NCBI RefSeq assembly: GCF_018336915.1
Contig: NZ_CP064923.1
Span: 60,001-92,000, forward strand
Origin: Acaryochloris marina S15
Lineage (GTDB): Bacteria; Cyanobacteriota; Cyanobacteriia; Thermosynechococcales; Thermosynechococcaceae
Length of the DNA: 32,000 nucleotides
Reading direction: 5' to 3'
Shown here: piece by piece, positions 1 to 32,000 of the stretch
Position numbering within the stretch: position 1 is the first letter of the stretch
Layout of the letters: each line of letters begins with the position of its first letter
Notes under the pieces: model-generated
Databases searched by the model: none
Seen by the model: only the letters and a program-made list of their open reading frames with translations
Told to the model about the DNA's origin: nothing
Made by a program: the position numbers and the translations under genes

Positions 1-707
1 GCCAATCCGAATTTGTGCGCGTGCCCTATGCCAATGGAACCCTATTCAAACTGCCTGACAGCTTTACGTCGGGTTCAGAAGACCACAAAGCGCTACCGCT
101 GGCAGATAATTTTGCAACTGGATATCATGGCGCCCTTAACTCAAATATTCTCCCTGGCGAAACAGTTGTTGTTATCGGTGACGGAGCGGTGGGACAGAGT
201 GCTGTGATGGCAGCAGCAAAGCTCTTTAATCCTGAGCAGGTTATCCATGTGGGCCGGTACGATAGCCGACTGGAGTTTTCCAAGCAAAAAAGTGGCGCGA
301 CCCATACTGTAAATGGCAAAACCCAAGACCCAATCGAGTATGTGAAGAGCTTGACTAATGGTTACGGCGCCATGTCGATTATTGACACCGTTGGTAATAA
401 AGGATCGATTTCGCAAGCCATGGCGATGGCCCATGCAGGCGGTAAATTGAGCGTGCTTGGGTTTGGGCATCTTTATGAACCTGTAGATGCCCCCTACTCT
501 GATGCTCTATTTAGAAACCTGACTATTCATACAGGCGTCGTGAATGTCGCCGCCTATATGAGGACGCTGCTTCCGATCGTCGAAAACGGGCAGATTGATC
601 CCAGTGTCATCTTTACGGATACCTTGCCACTTGCAGAGGCTAAGCAAGGCTATGACTTAATGATGGGTCGGTCGGCCGGTACAGTCAAAGTTGCGCTTAA
701 GCCCTAA
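1..707 (+). CDS. Zn-dependent alcohol dehydrogenase (MDR) family protein, C-terminal part; the 5' end lies outside the window
   Basis: Frame 3 is open from base 3 (QSEFVRVPYANG...). Rossmann motif VVVIGDGAVGQSAV and an MDR-type C-terminus. Stop at 705-707. Confidence 0.8.
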   Translation, partial: QSEFVRVPYANGTLFKLPDSFTSGSEDHKALPLADNFATGYHGALNSNILPGETVVVIGDGAVGQSAVMAAAKLFNPEQVIHVGRYDSRLEFSKQKSGATHTVNGKTQDPIEYVKSLTNGYGAMSIIDTVGNKGSISQAMAMAHAGGKLSVLGFGHLYEPVDAPYSDALFRNLTIHTGVVNVAAYMRTLLPIVENGQIDPSVIFTDTLPLAEAKQGYDLMMGRSAGTVKVALKP

Positions 708-722
708 TTCGCAGCCAACAGG

Positions 723-1022
723 TTGTCGATGAGTCCAGAAGTGAGAAGTCTTTTGGTTGTTTACTTTAAAGACTTTTCGCTCTGGGAGTTGTGTCAGCAG
801 ACCATGATTGACAGATTCCAGTGTATGAAACAACAAATTTTACACACGCACAAACGCGGACAGGCAGAAGGTACCATGCGAGACGATATCTCAGCTGAGG
901 AACTGGCTGACTTTCTGATCAATAGCTATGAAGGTGCATTACTGAGAATGCAGGTGGAGTAGTCTGTTAAGCCTATTGGACAACTGAGTTCACTCATACG
1001 TCACTATCTAATGAGGGCTTAG
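723..1022 (+). pseudogene. TetR-family regulator, C-terminal ligand-domain remnant; no HTH, and an in-frame TAG at 960-962
   Basis: SPEVRSLLVVYFKDF...RGQAEGTMRDDISAEELADFLINSYEGALLRMQVE matches the usual TetR C-terminal pattern (G.IR.D.dpE.lA.FL....EGA.L). The similarity continues past the stop (SVKPIGQLSSLIRHYL). The fragment begins only 15 nt after the upstream ADH stop and has no N-terminal DNA-binding domain. Confidence 0.6.
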
Positions 1023-1153
1023 AGCGTTCCTTGAATATAGTCGACTGGGTTTAAGAAACAAGGATGACTTCCTCAAATCTAGTTACACCAGTACTGGTAA
1101 AATTTGGCTCTATTTTCAGACGACCAGTCGTTTTAATGAATTAGAAGTTACTC

Positions 1154-1558: not shown

Positions 1559-1601
1559 ATGGAATTGAAGGCAGTGTTTGGCAAAATCGAGGAGGTGCGC
1601 T

Positions 1602-2336
1602 GTGACAAAACCCATTTGTTTGATTACTGGGGTAGGAGACGGGACGGGAAGTGAGATCGCTCGCAAATTTTCCCAAGGAGGATACCGGGTCGCAATGATA
1701 GCCCGTAATCGAGATCGCCTCCAAATGCTCGAACGAGAACTGCCGCAATCCAAAGCTTATGCTTGTGATATTGGAGATTTAGAGACCCTACTCTCCACCC
1801 TAAAGAAAATTTGCTCAGAGATGGGACATCCTTCTGTCTTGATCCATAATGCTGTTAGCGCTACCTTCGGAAGGTTTCTAGAAGCCGATCCTGAAGATTT
1901 AGAACGCAACTTTCGAGTGAATACAACATCATTGCTTTACCTGGCTCGGGAACTCTCACCATCTATGATTGCAGCCGGCAATGGTGCAATTGTGGTCACG
2001 GGAAATACCGCTGCCTTCAGAGGCATTCCCAGCTATGCCCTATTCGCACCGACCAAGGCTGCACAGCGGGTACTATCGCAAGCGCTTGCCCGTGATTTGG
2101 GGCCAAGGGGTGTTCATGTCGCCTATGTGACCATTGATGCCGCGATCGCTACTCCCTGGTCCAAAAACTTGCCCATTGAAGGGCTCAACATTGGACTATT
2201 GAATCAACAAGAGCGACCCGAAGATTTTTTCTGTCAACCCATTGATATTGCAGAAGAGGTGTTTCATGTGGCCCATCAACCAAGATCAGCTTGGTCTTTT
2301 GATGTGGAAATTCGACCGTTTGGGGAAAAGTGGTAG
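1602..2336 (+). CDS. short-chain dehydrogenase/reductase (SDR) family oxidoreductase
   Basis: TGVGDGTGSEIA (TGxxxGxG) and YALFAPTKAA (YxxxK). GTG at 1602 lies 6 nt after GAGGAGG (1589-1595). The ORF-track start at 1578 is a TTG extension. Confidence 0.85.
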   Translation: MTKPICLITGVGDGTGSEIARKFSQGGYRVAMIARNRDRLQMLERELPQSKAYACDIGDLETLLSTLKKICSEMGHPSVLIHNAVSATFGRFLEADPEDLERNFRVNTTSLLYLARELSPSMIAAGNGAIVVTGNTAAFRGIPSYALFAPTKAAQRVLSQALARDLGPRGVHVAYVTIDAAIATPWSKNLPIEGLNIGLLNQQERPEDFFCQPIDIAEEVFHVAHQPRSAWSFDVEIRPFGEKW

Positions 2337-2531: not shown

Positions 2532-2546
2532 CAAATTTTAGAGTTA

Positions 2547-2585
2547 CATTTTTTTGATTTGTTTATCTACATACATATAGGTCAG
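2547..2585 (+). promoter_or_regulatory. promoter/operator-like repeat, copy R1 (T-run, -35 TTGATT 2554-2559, core CTACATACATATAG 2567-2580, -10-like TATAGG 2576-2581)
   Basis: 31/36 identity to R2. 16-nt spacer between the -35-like and -10-like hexamers. 66 nt upstream of the intact NTF2-like gene. Confidence 0.55.
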
Positions 2586-2650: not shown

Positions 2651-3070
2651 ATGTCAACTGAAACTACACTCAACGTAACCCCCAAAACAGCCGCTGACGA
2701 AGCGCATAGCTTTGCAGAATACAAAGCTGTTGAAGCCGCTTTACAGCCTTATATTGAGTCCGCCAAAACAGGTGACGGCGCGCTTTGCCGGACGGCCTTT
2801 TATGACCACGCTCATATTGTTGGCTCAGTACACGGCACTTTCTATGATTTGGATGCTGACACGTTCCAAGGCGCGGTGAATGAAACAGGCGCATCCCCAG
2901 ACGTTCAGTCTCACATTTCCTGGATTGATATTTCTGGACCTGCCGCATCAGCAAAGGTTGAATTTCTCAATTGGGCTGGTTTCCGTTATACCGATTTCTT
3001 TGTCCTCTATAAGCAGGATGGTCAGTGGAAAATCAGCGGCAAGGTCTACGACTCTCACGCCCAAAATTAA
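2651..3070 (+). CDS. NTF2-like (SnoaL / putative lumazine-binding type) protein, intact copy
   Basis: 139 aa. C-terminus AKVEFLNWAGFRYTDFFVLYKQDGQWKISGKVYDSH is typical of the NTF2-like lumazine-binding-2 type fold. AGGAG lies upstream of the ATG. Confidence 0.7.
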   Translation: MSTETTLNVTPKTAADEAHSFAEYKAVEAALQPYIESAKTGDGALCRTAFYDHAHIVGSVHGTFYDLDADTFQGAVNETGASPDVQSHISWIDISGPAASAKVEFLNWAGFRYTDFFVLYKQDGQWKISGKVYDSHAQN

Positions 3071-3158
3071 TCATGTATGCACAGGCACTGGTAAGTGACT
3101 GCACGCTTTGCCTGTGTAGGTTTCGTCTTAAATAGAATTTCAACAACAGGAGGAAAAT

Positions 3159-3593
3159 ATGTCAGCGTCTGTACCGCCCTCAATTGCACCCAAAAGAATT
3201 CTCTATACAATGCTTCGGGTCAGCGATCTGGATAGATCGATTGCGTTCTATCACAATATGCTTGGCATGTCCGAGTTGGGACGTGAAACCTTTCCCGATG
3301 CCGAATTTACCGCTGTCTTTATGGGATACGGAAATCGAAAAACCGATGCGGTCATAGAGATAACCTATAACTGGGACAAGCGTAGCTACGAGCATGGTAC
3401 AGCCTACGGAAATCTCTCTCTTGCCGTAGACGATGTCTATGCATTGACAGCTTATCTCGAAGAGAACGGTGTGAAGGTCTTGCGCCCCGCAGGAGAAGTA
3501 CCAATGGTGTCAACTGAAACAGGTGAGAAGCACACGTTAGCATTTATTGCTGACCCCGATGGTTACCGCATTGAACTCATGCAAACTGCTTGA
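3159..3593 (+). CDS. gloA: lactoylglutathione lyase (glyoxalase I)
   Basis: ILYTMLRVSDLDRSIAFYHNMLGM...IEITYNWD...YEHGTAYGNLSLAVDD...AFIADPDGYRIELMQ. VOC-fold GloA pattern. AGGAGGA RBS. Confidence 0.85.
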   Translation: MSASVPPSIAPKRILYTMLRVSDLDRSIAFYHNMLGMSELGRETFPDAEFTAVFMGYGNRKTDAVIEITYNWDKRSYEHGTAYGNLSLAVDDVYALTAYLEENGVKVLRPAGEVPMVSTETGEKHTLAFIADPDGYRIELMQTA

Positions 3594-3657
3594 CTTTTAC
3601 CCAGATTTTCAACCATTCAAAAGATAAAAATTACCCAATCTAAAAAGGAAAAAGAAC

Positions 3658-4119
3658 ATGACTTCTTTGACCAGAACAGTTACTGCTGAAGCCTTTGAAT
3701 CAGTGGCATCTGGACAACTCGGCTTTACGAATATGGTCGATTACGGCATTACATTGCCAGAGCTTGCTTCCGGCACAACGCCCCCGCCGCAAGGCGCCCG
3801 TTTTGACTTAACCCTTGAGGGGCAACTTACAGGCCCGATTACAGGCAAGATGATTGCTACGGACTATATTAATGTGCGTGCTGACGGCCGATTTGAACTC
3901 AACATGTTTGGGCAAATCACCACCACAGATGGCGCACAGATTTCATTTGAAGGCCATGGGGTATCGGTCCATAAATCTGACGGGACTGAAGGCGTACGTA
4001 TGTCTGTAAAGCTAGTGACTCAATCCAGTGAGTATGCATGGGTAAACGGCGTTACTTTTATCGCTGAAGGGATTGTTGACTCGGCAGCTAACACGTTAGC
4101 AATGTCTCTACTCAGATAA
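3658..4119 (+). CDS. DUF3237-like beta-barrel protein (hypothetical)
   Basis: The pattern G.RF.L.LEG.LTGP..GK...DY...RADGR..L......TTDGA.I...G...EYAWVNGVTFIAEG resembles the DUF3237/UPF0311 family. Confidence 0.5.
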   Translation: MTSLTRTVTAEAFESVASGQLGFTNMVDYGITLPELASGTTPPPQGARFDLTLEGQLTGPITGKMIATDYINVRADGRFELNMFGQITTTDGAQISFEGHGVSVHKSDGTEGVRMSVKLVTQSSEYAWVNGVTFIAEGIVDSAANTLAMSLLR

Positions 4120-4163
4120 GAAAACGTACTGCTGAACGGTGGAGAGACATCTCACGCCAGCCA

Positions 4164-4205
4164 ACTTTTTTTTGACTTAGCTATCAACATACATATAGGT
4201 CAGCC
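4164..4205 (+). promoter_or_regulatory. promoter/operator-like repeat, copy R2 (T8 run, -35 TTGACT 4172-4177, core CAACATACATATAG 4185-4198, -10-like TATAGG 4194-4199)
   Basis: TTTTTTGACTTAGCTATCAACATACATATAGGTCAG. The geometry matches R1. It lies upstream of the peroxiredoxin-like gene. Confidence 0.55.
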
Positions 4206-4353
4206 AAGGTTGTTGTCAAGCCGCGACCTCAAACTGCCCAATTCTCGAAGCAGGGGTAGACAACAATCAATTGTTCGATTCCCTTTTTCAATTTACTGCG
4301 CTGATTTTTTATCAGCACTTGACCACACTATTTATCAATTTGGAGACATCACA

Positions 4354-4908
4354 ATGACTGTAACGACAACTACACCAGCAACAACTTCCGCTATTCGTTT
4401 AGTTCCTGGCAACAACGTCCCTGCGTTGACCATTGATACGCTATCTGGCAATGCTTGGAATCTTGCGGCTCAAACCCCTCGTAACTACACGATGGTGGTC
4501 TTCTATCGGGGATTGCACTGCCCCCTCTGTGCTGAGTACTTAAAGCAGCTGAACAGTAAGCTCAGTCAGTTTCACGATCTCGGTATTGAAGTGATTGCCA
4601 TTAGTGGTGACACTCGCGAGAAAGCTGCTAATTCATCTGAAACCTGGGGTGTAAAAGATTTGACACTGGGCTATGGCCTCACCCGTGAAGCGATGCAGCA
4701 GTGGGGGCTTTATGTCTCCAAGGGTGCATTTGACTATGAGCCAGCCTATTTCAATGAACCAGGACTCTTTTTGATTGGCCCTGACGGCGTGCTTTTCTTC
4801 GCGAGTATTAATAACGCGCCCTATGGTCGTACTGACCTAGATGCACTGCTCGGCGGTATGGACTTTGTCTTGAACAACAACTACCCCGTGCGTGGTACTG
4901 AGGTCTAA
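4354..4908 (+). CDS. thioredoxin-fold peroxiredoxin-like (AhpC/TSA family) protein
   Basis: VVFYRGLHCPLCAEYLKQL carries a CxxC-type redox motif in an AhpC/TSA-like context. ATG 4354 is preceded by GGAGA. The 48-codon upstream extension in the ORF track shows no homology and covers the promoter-like repeat. Confidence 0.7.
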   Translation: MTVTTTTPATTSAIRLVPGNNVPALTIDTLSGNAWNLAAQTPRNYTMVVFYRGLHCPLCAEYLKQLNSKLSQFHDLGIEVIAISGDTREKAANSSETWGVKDLTLGYGLTREAMQQWGLYVSKGAFDYEPAYFNEPGLFLIGPDGVLFFASINNAPYGRTDLDALLGGMDFVLNNNYPVRGTEV

Positions 4909-4956
4909 AAGAAAGAAAGCTCTTCCCCTATTCCAACAATACAACGGAGAAAAATC

Positions 4957-5208
4957 ATGCCTTTTGTAAATGTTCGCACAACCAAAGGAATGCTGACTAA
5001 GGATCAGAAACAAGAGCTTCAAGAGCGTCTGAACGCCTTAATGGTTGAGATTGAAGGGGGTGGTGACCCAACCTTCAAAGACAAGGTCTGGATCATGATT
5101 GAGGAGACCGAGCCTGAGGACTGGAATATCGGAGGGGTCACGCTAACCCCTGACATCATCCAAGAACTCAAACGCCAACAGGCTCCCAAAAGTAAAGGAA
5201 AATCCTAG
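4957..5208 (+). CDS. 4-oxalocrotonate tautomerase family protein
   Basis: 83 aa starting MPFVNVRT (catalytic Pro1 after Met removal), with a beta-alpha-beta tautomerase-like pattern. GGAGAAAAATC precedes the ATG. Confidence 0.7.
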   Translation: MPFVNVRTTKGMLTKDQKQELQERLNALMVEIEGGGDPTFKDKVWIMIEETEPEDWNIGGVTLTPDIIQELKRQQAPKSKGKS

Positions 5209-5221
5209 ACTGCACGCTTAA

Positions 5222-5263
5222 GGATGTGCGATCGCAAAGTATGGGGTAGCGCTTCTACCCCAT
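5222..5263 (+). promoter_or_regulatory. degenerate copy (RA) of the same element, with hairpin GGGGTAG-CGCTT-CTACCCC (5243-5261)
   Basis: GTATGGGGTAGCG aligns with ATATAGGTCAGCC of R2. The stretch 5222-5280 is 48/59 identical, ungapped, to 7523-7581. Confidence 0.4.
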
Positions 5264-5413
5264 GTGATTAATTTTGAAATTTCTGGATCTGCCGCTGTTG
5301 CAAAGGTTGAATTTATTAACTGGGGCGGCTTCCGAGACTTCTCTGTCCTCTACAAGCACAACGGAGAATGGAAAATCAGCGGCCAGGTCTTCGATGCTCA
5401 TACCCAAAACTAA
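5264..5413 (+). pseudogene. NTF2-like gene 3' remnant (copy A, about 49 codons)
   Basis: VINFEISGSAAVAKVEFINWGGFRDFSVLYKHNGEWKISGQVFDAHTQN* aligns with residues 91-139 of the intact copy at 2651-3070. The N-terminal two thirds are absent. Confidence 0.75.
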
Positions 5414-5562
5414 GTTTTCTCTATCCACTGCCTCTAAGTCGCGCAGTCTAAACCGTAGATAACATTGACTTTGTATTGGTGCCAGACGCGTAAACGAGCA
5501 TTCCAAATAGTCAAGCGCACTCGAAATAACAACCTAACTCAACACCCTAACCAGGAAAAAAG

Positions 5563-6255
5563 ATGACTTACGACAACGTGTTTAAAAAATGGCCTGCACA
5601 GCACCCTGAGAGAATTCAGCTGTATTCTCTCGGAACGCCCAACGGTCAAAAAATTTCCATTGCGCTAGAAGAAATGGCCCTGCCCTATGAGGCCCATCGC
5701 ATTGAGATTATGAAAGATGACCAGTTCACCGATGAGTTCATTGCCATTAACCCCAATTCCAAAATCCCAGCCATCATCGATCCAAATGGGCCAAACAATG
5801 AACCTTTTGCTGTCTTCGAGTCCGGTGCCATTTTGATGTATCTGGCAGAGAAGTCAGGGAAATTTCTCCCCACCGATCCGGCAGCCCGCAGTGAGTGTTT
5901 GCAATGGTTGTTTTTCCAAATGGGAGGTGTCGGCCCCATGTTTGGACAGTTTGGACATTTCCACACGTTTGCCAAGGAAAAAGTTCCCTATGCCATTGAG
6001 CGCTATCGCAACGAAGCTCGACGGTTGTTAACCGTCCTGGATAAGCAACTATCAGAAAAACCTTTTCTCATAGGAGACGCGTATTCCATTGCAGATATGG
6101 CGACATTTCCTTGGGTAGGCACATTGGATTGGGCTTACAAAGCAGCTGAATCGTTGCAGCTTCACCAAGACTTTCCGAATGTTATGACCTGGTATGAGCG
6201 CTGTCGGCAACGGCCTGCGGCGGTTCGTGGACTAGCCGTAACGAAAATCAATTAA
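5563..6255 (+). CDS. glutathione S-transferase, YfcG/YghU-like (Nu-class-like)
   Basis: LYSLGTPNGQKISIALEEMALPYE...INPNSKIPAIIDPNG...FESGAILMYLAEKSGKFLP closely follows the E. coli YfcG-type N-terminal pattern. Confidence 0.8.
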   Translation: MTYDNVFKKWPAQHPERIQLYSLGTPNGQKISIALEEMALPYEAHRIEIMKDDQFTDEFIAINPNSKIPAIIDPNGPNNEPFAVFESGAILMYLAEKSGKFLPTDPAARSECLQWLFFQMGGVGPMFGQFGHFHTFAKEKVPYAIERYRNEARRLLTVLDKQLSEKPFLIGDAYSIADMATFPWVGTLDWAYKAAESLQLHQDFPNVMTWYERCRQRPAAVRGLAVTKIN

Positions 6256-6389
6256 CAACGAACTGATTGAGCACGCTGTAAATTCGCTCTAATCAATCAT
6301 CGGATGGCACTCCTAATCCTTGCAGAGCTTTGACTCTATACTCAAGCTCGAATCAATCACTTGTTCATTTATTTAACCCACGGACTCCC

Positions 6390-7502
6390 ATGACTCAAAC
6401 GAACGTTCCTCATCTTCTTAGTTCTCTAGAAACAAAAGATCTAACCTTTCGAAATCGGATTGTGATGGCCCCGCTGACTCGTTCTCGATCGGGTGCGGAA
6501 AGAATACCAAACGCGCTGATGGCTGAGTACTATGCTCAGCGGGCTGGAGCGGGCCTCATCATTACAGAAGGTACTACCATCTCACCCCAGGCGAACGGTT
6601 GGCTCAATTCTCCCGGTATCTATACAGAAGCCCAAACCCAAGCCTGGAAGCAGGTTGTAGATGCGGTACATGCCCAAAATGGGTTGATCTTTTTGCAGCT
6701 TTGGCACACGGGTCGAGCGTCTCATCGTGACTTTCAAGTGAATAATCAACTTCCAGTGGGGCCATCAGCAGTCGGATTAGAAGGCTCAGAGGTACATACT
6801 CCCAAGGGGAAACAACTCTACGAGACCCCGAGGGCATTAGAGACTGCCGAAATCCCTAACGTGATCGAGGACTACCGACAAGCCGCTGCTAACGCTAAGC
6901 AAGCGGGCTTTGATGGCGTAGAGATCCATGGGGCCAATGGCTATTTGATTGACGAATTTCTACAGTCTAAGACCAATCACCGCACAGATCTGTATGGCGG
7001 TAGTTTAGAGAATCGCTTTCGGTTCTTAAAAGAAATCACTGAAGCGGTTCTGACTGTTTGGCCTGCTAGTCGTGTCGGAGTCAGGCTCTCGCCCAATGGC
7101 GTCTTCAACGATATGGGATCACCCGATTATCGGGAGACCTTTACTTATGTTGCTGAGCAGCTTAATACTTACAACCTAGGCTATTTGCATATCCTTGACG
7201 GTTTAGCGTTTGGCTTTCATGAGCTTGGAGAGCCAATGACACTGGCTGAAATTAGAAAGGTTTACAGCAATACACTGATGGGGAACTGTGGGTACGATCG
7301 CAATTCAGCAGAGTCTGCAATTGTATCTGGCGATGCGGCTCTGATTGCCTTTGGCCGCTCTTATATCAGCAATCCAGATCTTGTGGATCGTTTTGCCCAT
7401 AATTGGGAGCTGAATGCTGACTCTGATCCATCTACCTGGTACTCCTTTGAGGCTGAAGGATATACCGACTTCCCGACCTATCAAGTCTCTCAGGTTGTTT
7501 GA
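6390..7502 (+). CDS. Old Yellow Enzyme family NAD(P)H:flavin oxidoreductase (alkene / N-ethylmaleimide reductase-like)
   Basis: RNRIVMAPLTRSR, LWHTGRASH and HGANGYLIDEFL are OYE hallmarks. ATG at 6390; the track's 6330 start is a TTG extension. Confidence 0.85.
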   Translation: MTQTNVPHLLSSLETKDLTFRNRIVMAPLTRSRSGAERIPNALMAEYYAQRAGAGLIITEGTTISPQANGWLNSPGIYTEAQTQAWKQVVDAVHAQNGLIFLQLWHTGRASHRDFQVNNQLPVGPSAVGLEGSEVHTPKGKQLYETPRALETAEIPNVIEDYRQAAANAKQAGFDGVEIHGANGYLIDEFLQSKTNHRTDLYGGSLENRFRFLKEITEAVLTVWPASRVGVRLSPNGVFNDMGSPDYRETFTYVAEQLNTYNLGYLHILDGLAFGFHELGEPMTLAEIRKVYSNTLMGNCGYDRNSAESAIVSGDAALIAFGRSYISNPDLVDRFAHNWELNADSDPSTWYSFEAEGYTDFPTYQVSQVV

Positions 7503-7513
7503 CTTGAGCCATA

Positions 7514-7564
7514 GCATTTTTTGGATGTGCTTTAGCAACGTGTTGGGTAGCCCTTCTACCTAAC
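7514..7564 (+). promoter_or_regulatory. degenerate copy (RB) of the same element, with hairpin GGTAG-CCCTT-CTACC (7546-7560)
   Basis: GCATTTTTTGGATGTGCTTTAGCAACGTGTTGGGTAGCCC. The 5' part matches R0 and R3 (GCATTTTTT), and ATGTGCTTT matches the segment just 3' of R3. It lacks the CTACAT core. Confidence 0.4.
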
Positions 7565-7594
7565 GTGATTAATTCTGAAATAAAGAGATTAGCA

Positions 7595-8566
7595 ATGGCA
7601 AATATGCAAGCAGCTGTGTTGACGGCATTGGGTGGTCCCGAAGGGTTTGAGATCCAGCAGATCCCCAAACCTGTACCAAAAGCCAATCAGATCTTAGTCC
7701 GCGTCTATGCAACGTCTATCAATCCTGTTGATTATCAAACCCGTCGGGGTGACTATAAAGACTATGTGCAACTCCCAGCAGTTATTGGTCTTGATGTGTC
7801 TGGGGTTGTTGAGGCCGTGGGAGAAACCGTAACCGCCTTTAAGCCAGGAGATGAAGTCTATTACGCGCCTAGAATTTTTGAAGATGCGGGTAGCTATGCT
7901 CAATACAATGTTGTTGATGAGAGCCTGGTTGCGATTAAGCCCAAAAATCTATCCCATACTGAAGCAGCGTGTTTTCCCATAGCAGGTGGAACCGCTTGGG
8001 AGTCCCTGTTTACTAGGGCAAATCTCCAGGTAGGTGAATCTGTTTTGATTCATGCGGGCGCAGGTGGCGTTGGGTCTTTAGCCATCCAATTAGCGAAAGC
8101 GATAGGTGCCTACGTGTTCACAACCTGTAGCCCTAGAAATCATGATTTGGTTACGAAACTGGGCGCGGACCATGTGATTGACTATACAACGGAAGACTAT
8201 GTAGAAGTCATTCAGCGAGAAACAGACAATCAAGGCGTTGATGTCGTCTTTGATACGATTGGCGGCAAGACGATTCAACAAAGTTTCGAGATTCTTCGCC
8301 CTTATGGTCGCCTTGTTAGCATCGTCGACATTGAAACGCCGCAATCTTTGCTCGCCGCTTGGGATCGAAATCTATCTGTCCATTTTGTTTTTAACCCAGT
8401 TAATTCAGCGAAGCTAGATGCCCTAAGGCAGCTTATTGAACGCGAACAGCTAAAACCAGTTATTGACTCAATCATGCCGTGGCAACAGGTGAGTCAAGCC
8501 ATCCAACGATTAGAACAAGGCGGAACAACAGGAAAGATTGTGCTGGATTTTGCTGATGATAATTAG
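7595..8566 (+). CDS. NADPH:quinone oxidoreductase-like zinc-binding dehydrogenase (MDR)
   Basis: MQAAVL...GGPEGFEIQQIPKP...VRVYATSINPVDY...HAGAGGVGSLAIQLAK. The start is ATG 7595 or 7604. The in-frame GTG 7565 extension is derived from an NTF2 remnant. Confidence 0.8.
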   Translation: MANMQAAVLTALGGPEGFEIQQIPKPVPKANQILVRVYATSINPVDYQTRRGDYKDYVQLPAVIGLDVSGVVEAVGETVTAFKPGDEVYYAPRIFEDAGSYAQYNVVDESLVAIKPKNLSHTEAACFPIAGGTAWESLFTRANLQVGESVLIHAGAGGVGSLAIQLAKAIGAYVFTTCSPRNHDLVTKLGADHVIDYTTEDYVEVIQRETDNQGVDVVFDTIGGKTIQQSFEILRPYGRLVSIVDIETPQSLLAAWDRNLSVHFVFNPVNSAKLDALRQLIEREQLKPVIDSIMPWQQVSQAIQRLEQGGTTGKIVLDFADDN

Positions 8567-8650
8567 CTTAACAATGCCTGCTGCAACCCTGCCTGAACTT
8601 ATACGAGCACGGCATTTTCTATATTTGTCAAAATAGAAGGTACAAAAGTC

Positions 8651-9115
8651 ATGAAAATCAGGCTACTCGTCCTAGCAGGCCTATTGTTTGCAGCTATGCT
8701 TTTGCCCATCACTGCGAGCAATGCCCATACTGTAAAGAGGTTGAAAGATCGCGACGCTGTAGCGATTGAAACAGTAATTTTCGATTATTTTGAAGGAAAC
8801 GGTACAGCAGATCGAGATCGGCTTGGCGCTGCTTTCCATGAAGACCTCGCCGTAATGGTAGGTATCATTAAGTCAGAGAATGGAACTCTCGAACGTCGTG
8901 CCTGGCACGATATGCCCGCTCTGCTAGATGCATGGGCAGCGGTCGAGAATCCTCCTGGTACGGGACGGGACGGCGAAGTTCTGCACATTCAAACAGTCGA
9001 TGGACGGATCGCAACTGCCCTCTTTCGCTACACAGATGAATTTTATGATGCCTTTACATTGCTAAAGCACGATGGCCAATGGAAGATCGCTAGCAAGGCA
9101 TTCATCGAACAATAA
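8651..9115 (+). CDS. NTF2-like protein with N-terminal signal peptide (distant paralogue of 2651-3070)
   Basis: MKIRLLVLAGLLFAAMLLPITASNA is a signal-like N-terminus. The C-terminus is FTLLKHDGQWKIASKAF. Confidence 0.6.
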   Translation: MKIRLLVLAGLLFAAMLLPITASNAHTVKRLKDRDAVAIETVIFDYFEGNGTADRDRLGAAFHEDLAVMVGIIKSENGTLERRAWHDMPALLDAWAAVENPPGTGRDGEVLHIQTVDGRIATALFRYTDEFYDAFTLLKHDGQWKIASKAFIEQ

Positions 9116-9152
9116 ATTTCAATCGAATAGAAAATGTAATTGGAGAATGATC

Positions 9153-9896
9153 ATGTCTCAAAATATTGATGGGAAAGTCGTTGTTATTACTGGTGCCAGC
9201 AGTGGCCTAGGAGAATCAACAGCTCGTCATTTAGCCTCGTTGGGCGCGAAGGTCGTGTTGGGAGCACGCCGCACAGAGAAATTAGAACGCATCACCCAAG
9301 AGATCCGCGACAGTGGGGGACAGGCTGAATTTTTGACCACAGATGTTACCGTTGCTAGCGATTTAAAGGCACTCGTTGAGAAAGCGATCGCAGCTTTCGG
9401 TCAAGTCGATGTCATTATCAACAATGCTGGATTGATGGCGATTGCTCCCATGTCAGAGACGAAAACTGACGAATGGGATCGCATGATTGATATCAACATT
9501 AAAGGCGTTCTATACGGTATTGCAGCGGCCTTACCCATCTTTGAAAGACAGGGCAGTGGACACTTTATCAACATTTCTTCTGTTGCTGGAGTGAAGGTAT
9601 TTAGTCCCGGTGGTGCGGTCTACAGTGGCACTAAATTTGCTGTGAGAGCAATTTCTGAAGGATTAAGGCATGAAGTGGGTGGCAAGATCAGAACAACCAC
9701 TATTGAGCCAGGTGCTGTAGATTCTGATCTAAAACACGGTAGTTCACATCAGGAAAGCTCGGACTTTGTGAAAGATTTTTATCAGATTGCAATTCCTGCT
9801 GACTCTGTTGCGCGTGCTATTGCCTACGCCATTGAACAACCTGCAGATATAGATATCAATGAGCTTGTCTTACGGCCAACCGTACAAGATTTCTAA
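9153..9896 (+). CDS. SDR family oxidoreductase
   Basis: VVVITGASSGLGE, NNAG and YSGTKFAV motifs. GGAG lies 7 nt upstream of ATG 9153. The 9072 start would overlap the preceding gene. Confidence 0.85.
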   Translation: MSQNIDGKVVVITGASSGLGESTARHLASLGAKVVLGARRTEKLERITQEIRDSGGQAEFLTTDVTVASDLKALVEKAIAAFGQVDVIINNAGLMAIAPMSETKTDEWDRMIDINIKGVLYGIAAALPIFERQGSGHFINISSVAGVKVFSPGGAVYSGTKFAVRAISEGLRHEVGGKIRTTTIEPGAVDSDLKHGSSHQESSDFVKDFYQIAIPADSVARAIAYAIEQPADIDINELVLRPTVQDF

Positions 9897-9935
9897 ACCG
9901 GTTCTAGTTTGAGAACTAGAAGTAGATGACAGTTT

Positions 9936-9978
9936 GCATTTTTTTAGCGACTTTATCTACATCTGCAGGTTGGCTCAG
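9936..9978 (+). promoter_or_regulatory. promoter/operator-like repeat, copy R3 (diverged)
   Basis: GCATTTTTTTAGCGACTTTATCTACATCTGCAGGTTGGCTCAG. It shares CATTTTTTT and TTTATCTACAT with R1. It is followed by NTF2 remnant C and the YahK-like ADH. Confidence 0.45.
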
Positions 9979-10011
9979 TATGTGCTTTCTCAAAAGCCAA
10001 CCTAAAAAACT

Positions 10012-10113
10012 AACTGGGATAGCTTCCACTTCATAGACTTCTTTGTTCTCTACAAGCACTGCAGCCAGCGGGAAATCAGTGGTAAGGCCTACGAGTCTCA
10101 CACCCAAAACTAA
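10012..10113 (+). pseudogene. NTF2-like gene 3' remnant (copy C, about 33 codons)
   Basis: NWDSFHFIDFFVLYKHCSQREISGKAYESHTQN* aligns with NWAGFRYTDFFVLYKQDGQWKISGKVYDSHAQN* of the intact copy. An in-frame TAA sits just upstream at 10003-10005. Confidence 0.7.
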
Positions 10114-10148
10114 GTTTTATCTATCTACTATTTCTAATAGGAGAACCC

Positions 10149-11171
10149 ATGACGACAGCATCCATGATTAGAGCTTATGCTGCTGCCGAGGTCGGCGGTA
10201 ATCTAACGCCATTTGAGTACAAGCCAGATCCACTAAAGGATACAGATGTTGAGATCGATGTTGAGTATTGTGGCCTTTGCCACAGCGATCTGAGTATGTT
10301 GGACAACGAATGGGGAATTACCCAATATCCCTTTGTTCCTGGTCATGAAGTGATTGGACGAGTGGCTAAGCTCGGTTCTGCGGTTAAATCTCTTCACGTT
10401 GGCCAGCAAGTGGGCTTGGGATGGTTTTCCAGTTCTTGTATGACCTGTGAATGGTGTCTTTCTGGGAATCACAATCTTTGCCCCAGCCGAGAAGAAACCA
10501 TCGTTAATCGACATGGCGGTTTTGCGGATAAGGTGCGCGCCCATGAAGTATGGACTGTTCCTCTCCCTGAAGGGATTGATGCGGTCAAAGCAGGTCCCCT
10601 ATTCTGTGGCGGCATTACTGTTTTTAATCCCCTTATTCAGTTGGGAATACAGCCAACAGACAAAGTTGGGGTCATTGGCATTGGTGGATTGGGGCATATG
10701 GCACTAAAGTTCTTGCGTGCTTGGGGGTGTGAAGTCACCGCTTTTTCATCGAGTCCTGAAAAAACGGCTGAAGCAAAAGCGATGGGGGCGCATTATGTTG
10801 TCAACTCACGTGAGCCTGACGCACTGAAAGCGGTCGCCAATTCCTTTGATGTGATTCTTTCTACCGTCAGCGCCGATTTAGACTGGAGCATTTATATCGA
10901 GGCCCTGCGTCCTCAAGGCAAGATCCACTTTGTTGGCATCCCACCCTCCCCTTTGAGTACCTCCTTATTTTCGATTATTGATGCACAGCGGTCGGTGTCA
11001 GGATCACCGTTGGGCAGTCCGGCAACCGTGCAGAAAATGCTCAATTTTTCTCAACGTCACAGCATTGAACCCGTTATTGAAACGTTTCCCTTTAGCCAAG
11101 TCAATGAAGCCATAGACCGGCTCCGTCACGGGAAGCCACGTTATCGGATTGTATTAGTACCAGACTCATAG
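10149..11171 (+). CDS. NAD(P)-dependent alcohol/aldehyde reductase, cinnamyl-alcohol-dehydrogenase (YahK/AdhC-like) subfamily
   Basis: CGLCHSDLSMLDNEWG...PFVPGHEVIGRV, structural zinc cysteines CMTCEWCLSGNHNLC, and GIGGLGHMALKF. AGGAGAA RBS. Confidence 0.85.
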   Translation: MTTASMIRAYAAAEVGGNLTPFEYKPDPLKDTDVEIDVEYCGLCHSDLSMLDNEWGITQYPFVPGHEVIGRVAKLGSAVKSLHVGQQVGLGWFSSSCMTCEWCLSGNHNLCPSREETIVNRHGGFADKVRAHEVWTVPLPEGIDAVKAGPLFCGGITVFNPLIQLGIQPTDKVGVIGIGGLGHMALKFLRAWGCEVTAFSSSPEKTAEAKAMGAHYVVNSREPDALKAVANSFDVILSTVSADLDWSIYIEALRPQGKIHFVGIPPSPLSTSLFSIIDAQRSVSGSPLGSPATVQKMLNFSQRHSIEPVIETFPFSQVNEAIDRLRHGKPRYRIVLVPDS

Positions 11172-26193: not shown

Positions 26194-27159
26194 ATGTTCA
26201 ACACTAGAATTAACAGAATTCTTGTTGGGCTGCTAACCGTCTTATTAGTTGTCGCCTGCCAGAGTGATCCCAATCGTCCGCCTTCTAACTCTAAAGCTCC
26301 TGCAAGCTGCCACCCTATCCAGCATGGTTTGGGGAAGGCCTGCGTCCCTCAACCTCCGAAACGGTTGATTAGTCTAGATGATTCAACATTAGCTAATGCG
26401 TTGATCCTTGGCGTGCCTTCTGTTGGCTGTGCTCTACCGGATGCAGCCCCGCTAGATTATTTGAATCAGTATATGGAGAAGAAAGGCTATGGGACAGAAT
26501 TTCTGGGTCAAAGTACTCAGCCTAATGTTGAGAAAATTTTAATGCTGAAGCCTGACTTAATTCTGGGAGTCGTTCCCTTTGGTGAACCGATTTATACGCA
26601 GCTTGCCGAAATTGCACCGACGGCAATGGGTGAGTGGCAGGGATCTCCGTCCTGGCGAGAGCACTTTGATTTTGTAGCCCAGACCTTAGGGAAAGAACCG
26701 GAAGCTAAATCGATTTGGAGTCAGTACTACCAACGGATTGATGCGTTGCAGCAGGCCCTAGGTGACCGGTTGGACAATCTAGAACTATCAACGATCTATG
26801 CCTATGGTGACCAAATGACGGTTGACGTCAGGAATTCATTTGCTGGCAGCATTTTTTCTGATATTGGCATTCAGCAACCTCGCAATCATAGTCCTAATAC
26901 GAATGGTGTTCTCGTTTTGTCAGAAGAAAGAATTCCTGAAATTGACGCTGATATTTTATTCGTGAATATCTATGATGCTGAGTCCAAACATCTGCTAGAT
27001 GAATGGCAGAAGAAGCCACTTTGGAAGCAACTGAAGGCAGTTCAATCAGGACAAGTCTACGTCGTTGATGCAAATTTTTGGCGAGGTGGTAATCCAATCG
27101 CTGCCAATCTTATGATTGATGATCTTTTTAAATATTTAGTTAATCGTCCTTCAGCTTAA
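26194..27159 (+). CDS. iron-siderophore ABC transporter substrate-binding lipoprotein (FhuD/FecB-like)
   Basis: Lipobox LLVVAC, then a PF01497-like pattern (RLISLDDSTLANALILGV...KPDLILG). Confidence 0.82.
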   Translation: MFNTRINRILVGLLTVLLVVACQSDPNRPPSNSKAPASCHPIQHGLGKACVPQPPKRLISLDDSTLANALILGVPSVGCALPDAAPLDYLNQYMEKKGYGTEFLGQSTQPNVEKILMLKPDLILGVVPFGEPIYTQLAEIAPTAMGEWQGSPSWREHFDFVAQTLGKEPEAKSIWSQYYQRIDALQQALGDRLDNLELSTIYAYGDQMTVDVRNSFAGSIFSDIGIQQPRNHSPNTNGVLVLSEERIPEIDADILFVNIYDAESKHLLDEWQKKPLWKQLKAVQSGQVYVVDANFWRGGNPIAANLMIDDLFKYLVNRPSA

Positions 27160-31431: not shown

Positions 31432-32000
31432 CTATGGCTTTGCCTTCAGCAGGTATTTGAACAGATCATCAATGACCAGATCGGCTGCCATCGGATCACC
31501 TGCCCGCCAAATATTTGCATCAACAATGTGTACTTGTCCTGCTTGAACAGCCTTGAGTTGATTCCATAGCGGTTTCTGTTGCCAATCCTCTAATATTTGC
31601 TCAGACTCTGTGTCATATACGCTCACAAATATGATATCGGCATCTATTTCAGGAATACGCTCTTCTGAAAGGATAATTATTCCGTCCTCTACCGCAGCCT
31701 GAGCTTTTGGTCGACGGATACCAATATCGGCAAGGATACTGCCTGCAAATGAGTTCTCGGCATCAATTGTGATGGTGTCATCGTAAGTGTAAATAATTGA
31801 TATCTCGACATCCTGAAGTTGATTTCCTAAAGCTGCTCTAATTTTATTAATTCTCTGTTCATAACTATCCCAAACTTGCCTTGCTTCATCCTCTTTATCC
31901 AAGACATTAGCCACAAAGTTAAAGTGTTCACGCCAAGTCGGCAATCCATTCCAATTTCCCAAAGCAGTCGGTGCAATCTGAGATAACTGTTTGAAAATAG
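31432..32000 (-). CDS. iron-siderophore ABC substrate-binding protein, paralogue of 26194-27159; the 5' end lies outside the window
   Basis: The reading frame stays open to base 32000 (IFKQLSQIAPTALGNWNGLPTWREHF...). The C-terminal 190 aa align collinearly with the other binding protein, e.g. LSEERIPEIDADI.FV..YD.ES...L.DWQ.KPLW.QLKAVQ.GQV..VDAN.WR.G.P.AA.L.IDDLFKYL. Confidence 0.8.
   Translation of the reverse strand, partial: IFKQLSQIAPTALGNWNGLPTWREHFNFVANVLDKEDEARQVWDSYEQRINKIRAALGNQLQDVEISIIYTYDDTITIDAENSFAGSILADIGIRRPKAQAAVEDGIIILSEERIPEIDADIIFVSVYDTESEQILEDWQQKPLWNQLKAVQAGQVHIVDANIWRAGDPMAADLVIDDLFKYLLKAKP

Follow-up and report, generated by a model that had tools for sequence, protein, structure and literature searches.

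In Escherichia coli, the nemRA-gloA operon brings together the TetR-family NemR, the old yellow enzyme (OYE) reductase NemA and glyoxalase I (PMC5297802). We analyzed a 32-kb window of the Acaryochloris chromosome (A. marina S15, contig NZ_CP064923.1, positions 60,001 to 92,000; positions below are those of the window), which contains what is plausibly a chromosomal cluster for the detoxification of reactive electrophiles and carbonyls. Relatives were reached through NTF2 homologues, and their loci carry our handles (L001, L002 and so on). In these relatives, the cluster appears to consist of TetR-repressed operons, each headed by an NTF2-like gene of the PF12893 (Lumazine_bd_2) family, for which we know of no described biochemical function.

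An earlier note on this sequence had described an intact NTF2-like gene, here NTF2-1, and three truncated copies (A, B and C), each ahead of an oxidoreductase gene, and had explained them by the serial duplication of one already damaged module. Its coordinates and identity counts were exact, and the similarities are far above chance (E = 2e-8 to 3e-24 in a BLAST comparison of the window with itself, to which all E values for pairs of window segments refer). A and C are real NTF2 remnants; B is the normal leader of the gene behind it. The gene downstream of A, ~150 nt away, encodes a glutathione S-transferase (GST), not an oxidoreductase. Comparison with the relatives led us to another history, which we consider very probable. 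The three "remnants" would be of three kinds, namely, a gene deleted in place (C), an ectopic fragment at the junction of an insertion (A) and a native leader (B).

Two tails of one NTF2-like gene

As expected for a pseudogene, remnant C has a full-length orthologue at the same position in other genomes. From 10012 to 11171, the window is colinear with L002 10319-11478 (88.7% identity), which comprises the last 102 nt of a second NTF2-like gene, NTF2-2, the spacer behind it and the gene for a YahK-like alcohol dehydrogenase (ADH). NTF2-2 is complete upstream of the YahK-like ADH gene in L002 (10001-10420, 139 aa) and in L003 (2979-3398); full-length genes at all four positions in related genomes, with independent breakpoints, were among the findings that the earlier note had named as refuting its reading, and at C such genes exist. 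Upstream of C, a stretch of the window aligned with the promoter/operator and 5′ untranslated region (5′UTR) of NTF2-2 (L002 9896-9970) with a local score of 22.5, which was reached by 0 of 300 shuffles. The colinearity with the full-length gene of L002, together with this relic of its own promoter and 5′UTR, argues that C is the native NTF2-2 gene, from which ~348 nt appear to have been lost internally, from the ribosome-binding site to codon 106. The Grx, orf79 and TetR genes found upstream in L002 are deleted at this locus. The 33-aa peptide of C had no match in Pfam; its family origin was seen at the DNA level instead (73.5% identity to NTF2-1, E = 4e-13).

The operator relic upstream of C is also one arm of a 19-nt inverted repeat (9837-9855 and 9954-9972; 18/19 complementary, 98 nt apart), whose other arm is the conserved 3′ coding end of the preceding short-chain dehydrogenase (SDR) gene. 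Changes in the relic relative to L002 (ACATGTAGGTCGG to CTGCAGGTTGG) raise its complementarity to the SDR 3′ end. This quasi-palindrome could stem from a template-switch mutation that took place after the deletion had joined the two sites.

Remnant A is an NTF2-like tail as well. The region 5274-5413 matched NTF2-1 (2925-3070) with 76.7% identity over 146 nt (E = 3e-24), and its 49-codon open reading frame (ORF) matched the PF12893 profile at positions 75-115 only, i.e., over its last third (23.3 bits), in agreement with an origin in this family. Window positions 5274-5437 were 82.9% identical to the NTF2-2 tail and spacer of L002 (10275-10444), compared with ~76% for copy-1 genes, indicating that A represents the tail of an NTF2-2-type gene followed by 25 nt of the NTF2-2/YahK spacer. 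A protein search with the A peptide returned only two clusters, the window itself and Acaryochloris sp. 'Moss Beach', and no full-length gene closer to A than NTF2-2 of L002. As the relatives have no gene at this position, A is an ectopic fragment.

A and C are 77% identical over 109 nt (5329-5437 and 10029-10137; E = 7e-18). The observation that they share a stop codon and a 3′ flank absent from the intact copy stands, as does the count of 31/37 identical positions (5402-5438 and 10102-10138); the flank is the NTF2-2/YahK spacer, which is present in L002 and L003 too. These features are common to both remnants because both derive from NTF2-2, which their sequences indicate to be a single paralogue distinct from the intact copy. 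At sites that are informative relative to NTF2-2 of L002, two strict derived sites and three spacer sites group A with C, and none favors either alternative grouping. A is probably a copy of this lineage's own NTF2-2, made while the gene still reached at least nt 275. In the gene, the 5′ breakpoints of A (nt ~275) and C (nt ~319) lie 44 nt apart, and a third one, at ~391, is found in strain L085 (96.9% identical to the window), the C locus of which consists of a Pyr_redox_2 gene and ~10 codons of NTF2-2. Since the 5′ breakpoints differ, C cannot be a copy of the module of A.

The junctions of A are identical in the seven strains found to have it, and in six of these C is present too, likewise with the same junctions throughout. 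Within these limits both loci vary. The 6-nt in-frame deletion of A is polymorphic, with Moss Beach and L093 retaining both codons, and so is a 12-nt deletion in the spacer of C. These polymorphisms and the few codons of C left in L085 bear out the differential erosion that the earlier note had proposed. Relative to NTF2-2 of L002, the proportion of nonsynonymous differences (pN) was 0.077 for A, 0.153 for C and 0.018 for the intact copies over the same codons, with similar proportions of synonymous differences (pS). The corresponding pN/pS ratios, from a small number of sites, were 0.23, 0.40 and 0.05. All substitutions between strains in A are nonsynonymous, and C differs from its Moss Beach counterpart at 9 of 102 positions (8.8%), near the pooled pS of ~0.09. 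By these measures, A and C are under relaxed constraint, and we infer that neither is functional.

The quinone oxidoreductase leader and the GST-OYE block

The earlier note had regarded B (VINSEI, 7565-7582) as NTF2-derived and fused in frame to the quinone oxidoreductase (QOR) gene. The fusion is a mechanical extension of the ORF, as the QOR orthologues, called at 321-323 aa, start at an ATG that matches position 7595. A and B do share 48 of 59 nt (5222-5280 and 7523-7581; 81%, E = 2e-8), exactly as counted before; their common junction is the native QOR leader rather than a truncation point of an NTF2 gene. The whole 59-nt stretch, including GTGATTAATTCTGAAAT, belongs to a conserved leader upstream of QOR in L001, L002 and L004, with the consensus GGATGTGC..GCAAAGTATGGGGTAG-N5-CTACCCCACGTNATTAATTCTGAAAT-AAGGAGATT..ATGGCAAAT. 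In alignments, the left copy in the window corresponds to the spacer between tautomerase and QOR in L001 and L002, and the right copy corresponds to the QOR leaders of L001, L002 and L004 through the ribosome-binding site and the ATG.

In L001 and L002, QOR directly follows the tautomerase gene, and in L004 it directly follows the peroxiredoxin (Prx) gene. None of the three has an NTF2 sequence at the leader position. In local alignments with three NTF2 genes, the QOR leaders scored no better than shuffles, and B does not derive from a member of PF12893. The observation that relatives have the leader without any NTF2 sequence there indicates that GTGATTAATTCTGAAAT is native leader and not a relic of the VINSEI codons. 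We also considered B as an ancient NTF2 remnant common to all relatives and rejected this idea, given that the similarity between leader and NTF2 genes did not exceed that of shuffles.

The leader contains a hairpin (5239-5265 and 7539-7567) that is predicted to fold in every copy. Among six sequences, three pairs of the stem are changed on both sides, i.e., in a compensatory manner, and a consensus scan flagged both hairpins of the window as terminator-like. No Rfam family matched anywhere in the window, and the hairpin is therefore not a described RNA. With its G+C-rich stem of 7 to 12 bp, 5-nt loop and compensatory changes, followed by a U-containing tail (AUUAAUUYUG), it resembles intrinsic terminators and intercistronic stabilizing hairpins. 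Unlike in intrinsic terminators, the U tract is weak, and the hairpin is a candidate for a terminator, attenuator or processing role. The left leader copy has gained a HIP1 site (GCGATCGC) at 5228-5235; the letters at this place are TTTAGC, TCTAGC or TTTCGC in the right copy and in the relatives. HIP1 is a cyanobacterial mark, with 12 sites in the window.

Between the two leader copies lies a block that the relatives lack. The stretch 5281-7522, which is flanked by both 59-nt copies, is absent between the tautomerase or Prx gene and QOR in L001, L002 and L004, and the sequences on either side are syntenic with L002 (window 4301-5280 with L002 4801-5789; window 7525-8565 with L002 5733-6773). 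Its absence in relatives and its position between the two leader copies argue that it was inserted into the leader, downstream of the hairpin and upstream of the ribosome-binding site, and that 59 nt of the target were duplicated. At the left junction, the BLAST matches to the leader (4301-5280) and to NTF2-2 (5274-5437) have 7 nt in common. A scan of GTDB genomes with the GST protein yielded 80 loci (best, 78% identity). Apart from one unrelated OYE, no NTF2, OYE, QOR or other gene of the cluster lay within 4 kb of any of them, and the scan thus offered no hint of where the GST-OYE block came from. The nearest OYE outside the genus, in Pleurocapsa (Pleurocapsales; 83%), has an unrelated housekeeping context. 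In other cyanobacteria, the orthologues of GST and OYE are linked neither to each other nor to NTF2 genes.

Origin of the remnants

The deletion at C and the fragment A would be separate events, contrary to the claim that the copies did not decay independently. At C, a single deletion of ~348 nt would have taken the ribosome-binding site, the start codon and the first 106 codons of NTF2-2, and a second deletion would have removed the upstream Grx-orf79-TetR genes, leaving behind a mutated promoter/operator relic, the 5′UTR and 33 codons. The deletions halt where the ribosome-binding site of YahK starts, perhaps because that gene is still under selection. At A, a composite 2.3-kb segment (NTF2-2 tail, GST and OYE) would have been inserted into the QOR leader, behind the hairpin and ahead of the ribosome-binding site, through illegitimate recombination at TTGAAAT/TTGATAT; its left end would be a 165-nt copy of the NTF2-2 tail, including 25 nt of the 3′ spacer. 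The insertion would have duplicated 59 nt of the leader, such that one hairpin copy now follows the tautomerase gene and another one OYE; B would be the right-hand copy, i.e., the leader that QOR normally has. The mechanism may have been template switching during replication or, following the uptake of DNA, homology-facilitated illegitimate recombination.

Several points weigh against this history. No source loci for GST and OYE were found with which the junctions 5438/5439 and 7522/7523 could be compared for microhomology. The lack of linkage between the GST and OYE orthologues in other cyanobacteria leaves the assembly of the block without explanation. As the leader copies are just 81% identical, the event must be old unless one of them stems from a diverged donor. 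The lineages of L001, L002 and L004 may instead have lost the block precisely, through the 59-nt repeats; the event would then have run the other way, but B would still be a leader. Between strains, A diverges by 1.5 to 3%, more slowly than synonymous sites (~9%), as does intergenic DNA overall (3.5 to 4%). Finally, an NTF2-2-like gene followed by GST-OYE outside the window could be the direct source of A.

Instead of being copied within the genome, the NTF2 tail, GST, OYE and leader may have arrived as a block from another strain by natural transformation, anchored on the right in the QOR leader or gene and joined on the left at TTGAxAT by homology-facilitated illegitimate recombination. We regard this as unlikely, if a serious contender. 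It would fit the low identity of the adjacent leader copies, the mosaic identity to the close relative L004 (95% for SDR1/NTF2-1, 82.5% for Prx and 89.6% for QOR), the occurrence of the nearest OYE outside the genus in Pleurocapsales and the outlying pS of NTF2-1 in the comparison with Moss Beach (0.237, versus ~0.09 for its neighbors). The mosaic identity and this pS suggest frequent recombination in the cluster. However, A groups with the lineage's own C and not with NTF2-2 of L002, at few informative sites, the QOR gene behind the right-hand leader copy shows no unusual divergence from L002 (91.5%), and no donor arrangement was found. Copies of one 59-nt hairpin unit, which end at the same base and whose hairpin is maintained by compensatory changes, border the insert left and right, as would also be expected if the unit were a recombination site, integron attC-like or other, and the block a gene cassette placed by a site-specific recombinase. 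We give this hardly any credence. No integrase, recombinase or transposase domain occurs in ORFs of at least 110 aa in the window, neither the window nor the other intergenic spacers of the cluster contain further copies of the unit, reading of the sequence revealed no attC-like inverse core sites, the left copy is continuous native sequence, and the microhomology of the left junction with the NTF2 gene is typical of illegitimate recombination. With no recombinase in the window and only two units, one of them native, an integron-like cassette was rejected. A further conjecture, which we consider very unlikely, is that the 59-nt hairpin leader is a reusable operon-junction element for slotting genes into polycistronic detoxification operons, guided by the hairpin or by template switching. 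With each insertion, a hairpin copy would then arise anew behind the genes that came in, and the NTF2 tail would be left over from this process.

The serial copying of a single truncated module (junction, NTF2 tail and 3′ flank) to three places, followed by unequal erosion, drew on real similarities, i.e., the 48/59 nt shared by A and B up to the same GAAAT, the stop codon and 25-nt flank shared by A and C, and the derived substitutions that A and C have in common. It fails because the A/B junction is the QOR leader, orthologous to that of genomes without any NTF2 remnant there and without similarity to NTF2 genes, because C is in place, colinear with a full-length gene and preceded by its own promoter and 5′UTR instead of the 59-nt stretch, and because A, the longer remnant, begins 44 nt ahead of C within the gene. 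The breakpoint in L085 is a third, independent one at the C locus. We therefore hold serial copying to be nearly inconceivable. Retention of A for a function, be it as a micro-protein of 49 to 51 aa or as a structured or regulatory element within the tautomerase-GST transcript, appears quite unlikely to us. The identical junctions in seven strains would agree with retention, as would the small number of substitutions (2 to 4 per 133 nt between strains with a pS of ~0.09) and the annotation by NCBI of the 51-aa Moss Beach ORF as an NTF2 family protein. Yet the substitutions between strains are all nonsynonymous, the 6-nt indel drops two well-conserved residues, and pN is four times that of the intact copies. 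The GTG start of the ORF lies within the 3′ arm of the hairpin without a Shine-Dalgarno sequence, the ORF covers no more than the final third of the fold (positions 75-115 of 116 in the Pfam profile), and divergence is no lower than that of the surrounding intergenic DNA. Selective retention of A was rejected on account of this level of divergence and of the exclusively nonsynonymous changes.

The surrounding cluster and known systems

Positions of the features are given in Table 1. The gene order around the remnants is tautomerase-[A]-GST-OYE-["B"]-QOR-NTF2b-SDR-[C]-YahK-like ADH, compared with TetR'-NTF2-1-Prx-tautomerase-QOR-GST-SDR-Grx-orf79-TetR-NTF2-2-YahK in L002; the remainder of the window consists of housekeeping genes. 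The window is colinear with the Moss Beach sequence (CP071717) over 14.4 kb at 96.5% identity.

Table 1. Features of the cluster in the 32-kb window
Feature	Position	Strand	Evidence or remarks
ADH fragment	15-707		Pfam annotation
134-aa ORF	between ADH fragment and SDR		Pfam-based gene order
TetR C-terminal remnant	711-1013	+	tblastn, 63% to Moss Beach TetR residues 119-194, E = 1e-28
SDR	1578-2336		Pfam annotation
TetR N-terminal remnant, ~29 codons	2460-2546	+	tblastn, 69% to residues 1-29 of L002 TetR-2
Promoter/operator repeat (TTGATT ... TATCTACATACATATAGGT)	2546-2585	+	Upstream of NTF2-1; repeat families D5, D8
NTF2-1, intact NTF2-like gene	2651-3070	+	PF12893 (Lumazine_bd_2), 139 aa
Glyoxalase I	3159-3593		Pfam annotation
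DUF3237	3658-4119		Pfam annotation
Second promoter/operator copy	4164-4203	+	Upstream of peroxiredoxin-tautomerase genes
Prx	4354-4908		Pfam annotation
Tautomerase	4957-5208		Pfam annotation
Left QOR-leader copy	5209-5280	+	Native place after tautomerase; ends GAAAT, where the ribosome-binding site would follow
Junction microhomology	5274-5280	+	TTGAAAT (leader)/TTGATAT (NTF2-2 nt 275-281), 6/7; alignment
Remnant A, last 45 codons of NTF2-2-type gene	5281-5413	+	6-nt in-frame deletion; GTG ORF of the earlier note, 5264-5413
25 nt of NTF2-2/YahK spacer carried with A	5414-5438	+	Homology stops exactly where the YahK ribosome-binding site would start
Inserted block (putative)	5439-7522	+	GST upstream region, GST, OYE, 20 nt more
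GST, YghU-like	5563-6255	+	Pfam
OYE, NemA-like alkene reductase	6390-7502	+	Pfam
Right QOR-leader copy ("remnant B")	7523-7594	+	59-nt duplicate (7523-7581), then ribosome-binding site AAAGAG
QOR, zinc-type medium-chain dehydrogenase	7595-8566	+	Pfam; 323 aa; true start ATG 7595
NTF2b, second intact PF12893 gene	8651-9115	+	154 aa; hydrophobic, signal-peptide-like N terminus
Second SDR	9153-9896		Pfam annotation
Decayed NTF2-2 promoter/operator and 5′UTR relic	9938-10008	+	-35 box and second operator half-site mutated
Remnant C, last 33 codons of NTF2-2	10012-10113	+	In place; no in-frame start codon
Native NTF2-2/YahK spacer with ribosome-binding site, and YahK-like ADH	10114-11171	+	Colinear with L002
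YahK-like ADH	10149-11171	+	Pfam annotation; colinear with L002

Both intact NTF2-like genes are full-length members of PF12893 (cutoff, 22.1 bits). NTF2-1 scored 78.8 bits over profile positions 2-115 of 116, and NTF2b, which the earlier note had overlooked, scored 58.9 bits; a look-up of the exact sequence of the intact NTF2 returned no match. At the position of NTF2b, L002 and L004 have a 214-aa GST gene instead. A flavobacterium (L088) and an alphaproteobacterium (L089) have the tandem pair NTF2/NTF2b too, within TetR(TetR_C_13)-NTF2(PF12893)-NTF2b-oxidoreductase modules (TetR-NTF2-NTF2b-CMD-glyoxalase-OYE in L089). NTF2 proteins are ~70% identical across phyla (478 homologues found with NTF2-1). 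The recurrence of such modules across phyla indicates that an NTF2-like gene ahead of redox enzymes is a conserved operon design and not a peculiarity of the window. Between the window and Moss Beach (2651-3070 and L087 7389-7808), the pS of NTF2-1 stands out from values of 0.03 to 0.11 for the flanking genes, suggesting that the gene was converted by a paralogue or by imported DNA; there is a third NTF2 copy in Moss Beach (L087 861-1280).

The two promoter/operator copies are 85% identical over 40 nt (E = 1.6e-4), and a motif search found two where none was expected. The unit TTGAYT..TATCTACATACATRTAGGT, with the inverted repeat CTACAT-N2-ATGTAG, occurs at 2416-2429, 2564-2582 and 4182-4200 and as a relic at 9954-9972, preceding a TetR remnant, NTF2-1, the Prx gene and remnant C, respectively. 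In L002, the same operator box is found upstream of both NTF2 genes and of TetR-2. The TetR remnant at 2460-2546, whose inverted operator (CTACAT-AC-ATGTAG) lies at 2416-2429, corresponds to the TetR gene that precedes NTF2-1 in relatives, and L002 has ~462 nt more at this place; the remnant at 711-1013 has a weak match to PF16925. Both linked TetR genes are thus remnants in the window; they are intact in L001, L002 and L087. Since no intact TetR gene is found within the window, where operator-bearing promoters persist, the regulon may be derepressed or controlled from elsewhere. The reduction of both TetR genes also indicates that decay in this cluster is general and not specific to NTF2 genes.

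Other differences between strains were observed in the cluster. When compared with L002 and L004, the window has the glyoxalase I and DUF3237 genes (3095-4300) inserted between NTF2-1 and the Prx promoter; in L001, the glyoxalase gene instead follows the second SDR gene. A segment of Moss Beach is missing from the window (L087 1-5760 versus window 1-1039); it comprises a duplicated ADH, the third NTF2, CMD, an intact TetR, a split ADH and Flavodoxin_2, and the TetR C-terminal remnant of the window sits at the matching junction. A full Pyr_redox_2 (thioredoxin-reductase-like) gene follows SDR in L085 (6976-7962), of which L002 retains just the first nine codons (ATGAAACTCACCAAACAAACGCTCAATTAA; 8528-8557), another strain-specific remnant. 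Outside the cluster, a 547-nt inverted similarity (26590-27134 and 31454-31998; 65.6%, E = 1e-62) corresponds to two periplasmic-binding-protein (PF01497) genes, diverged paralogues in a region of iron/siderophore-type transport that are unrelated to the NTF2 remnants.

Once related genomes were aligned, the apparent propagation of a damaged module resolved into ordinary events. They portray a TetR-regulated, NTF2-led electrophile-detoxification cluster with fast gain and loss of genes among Acaryochloris strains, in which this lineage has lost both linked repressor genes. In at least one public genome, the 49- to 51-codon fragment is annotated as a protein, and a pseudogene label is due.

The cluster resembles nemRA-gloA of E. 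coli (PMC5297802) in having a NemA-like OYE, glyoxalase I and promoters with palindromic operators, with TetR repressors present in relatives, and by this analogy it is plausibly a regulon for the detoxification of electrophiles, quinones and glyoxals. The likeness rests on gene content. Unlike in E. coli, the TetR proteins of the cluster have C-terminal domains of the TetR_C_13 type, both TetR genes of the window are reduced to remnants, and the cluster adds PF12893 NTF2-like, Prx, tautomerase, QOR, SDR, YahK and GST genes. NTF2-1 and NTF2b clearly belong to the NTF2-like/SnoaL-like proteins of PF12893, and A corresponds to a C-terminal piece of such a protein. A and C match bacterial pseudogene fragments and rearrangement scars in being truncated, in lacking a start codon or ribosome-binding site, in their raised nonsynonymous change and polymorphic indels, in having full-length orthologues in relatives and in their junction microhomology. 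Nothing essential sets them apart from such fragments, save that the two have a single paralogue as their source and that A lies at the margin of a putative 2.3-kb insertion, whose flanks are the duplicated 59 nt of the target. A and C are ordinary gene remnants and rearrangement scars, a known kind of thing.

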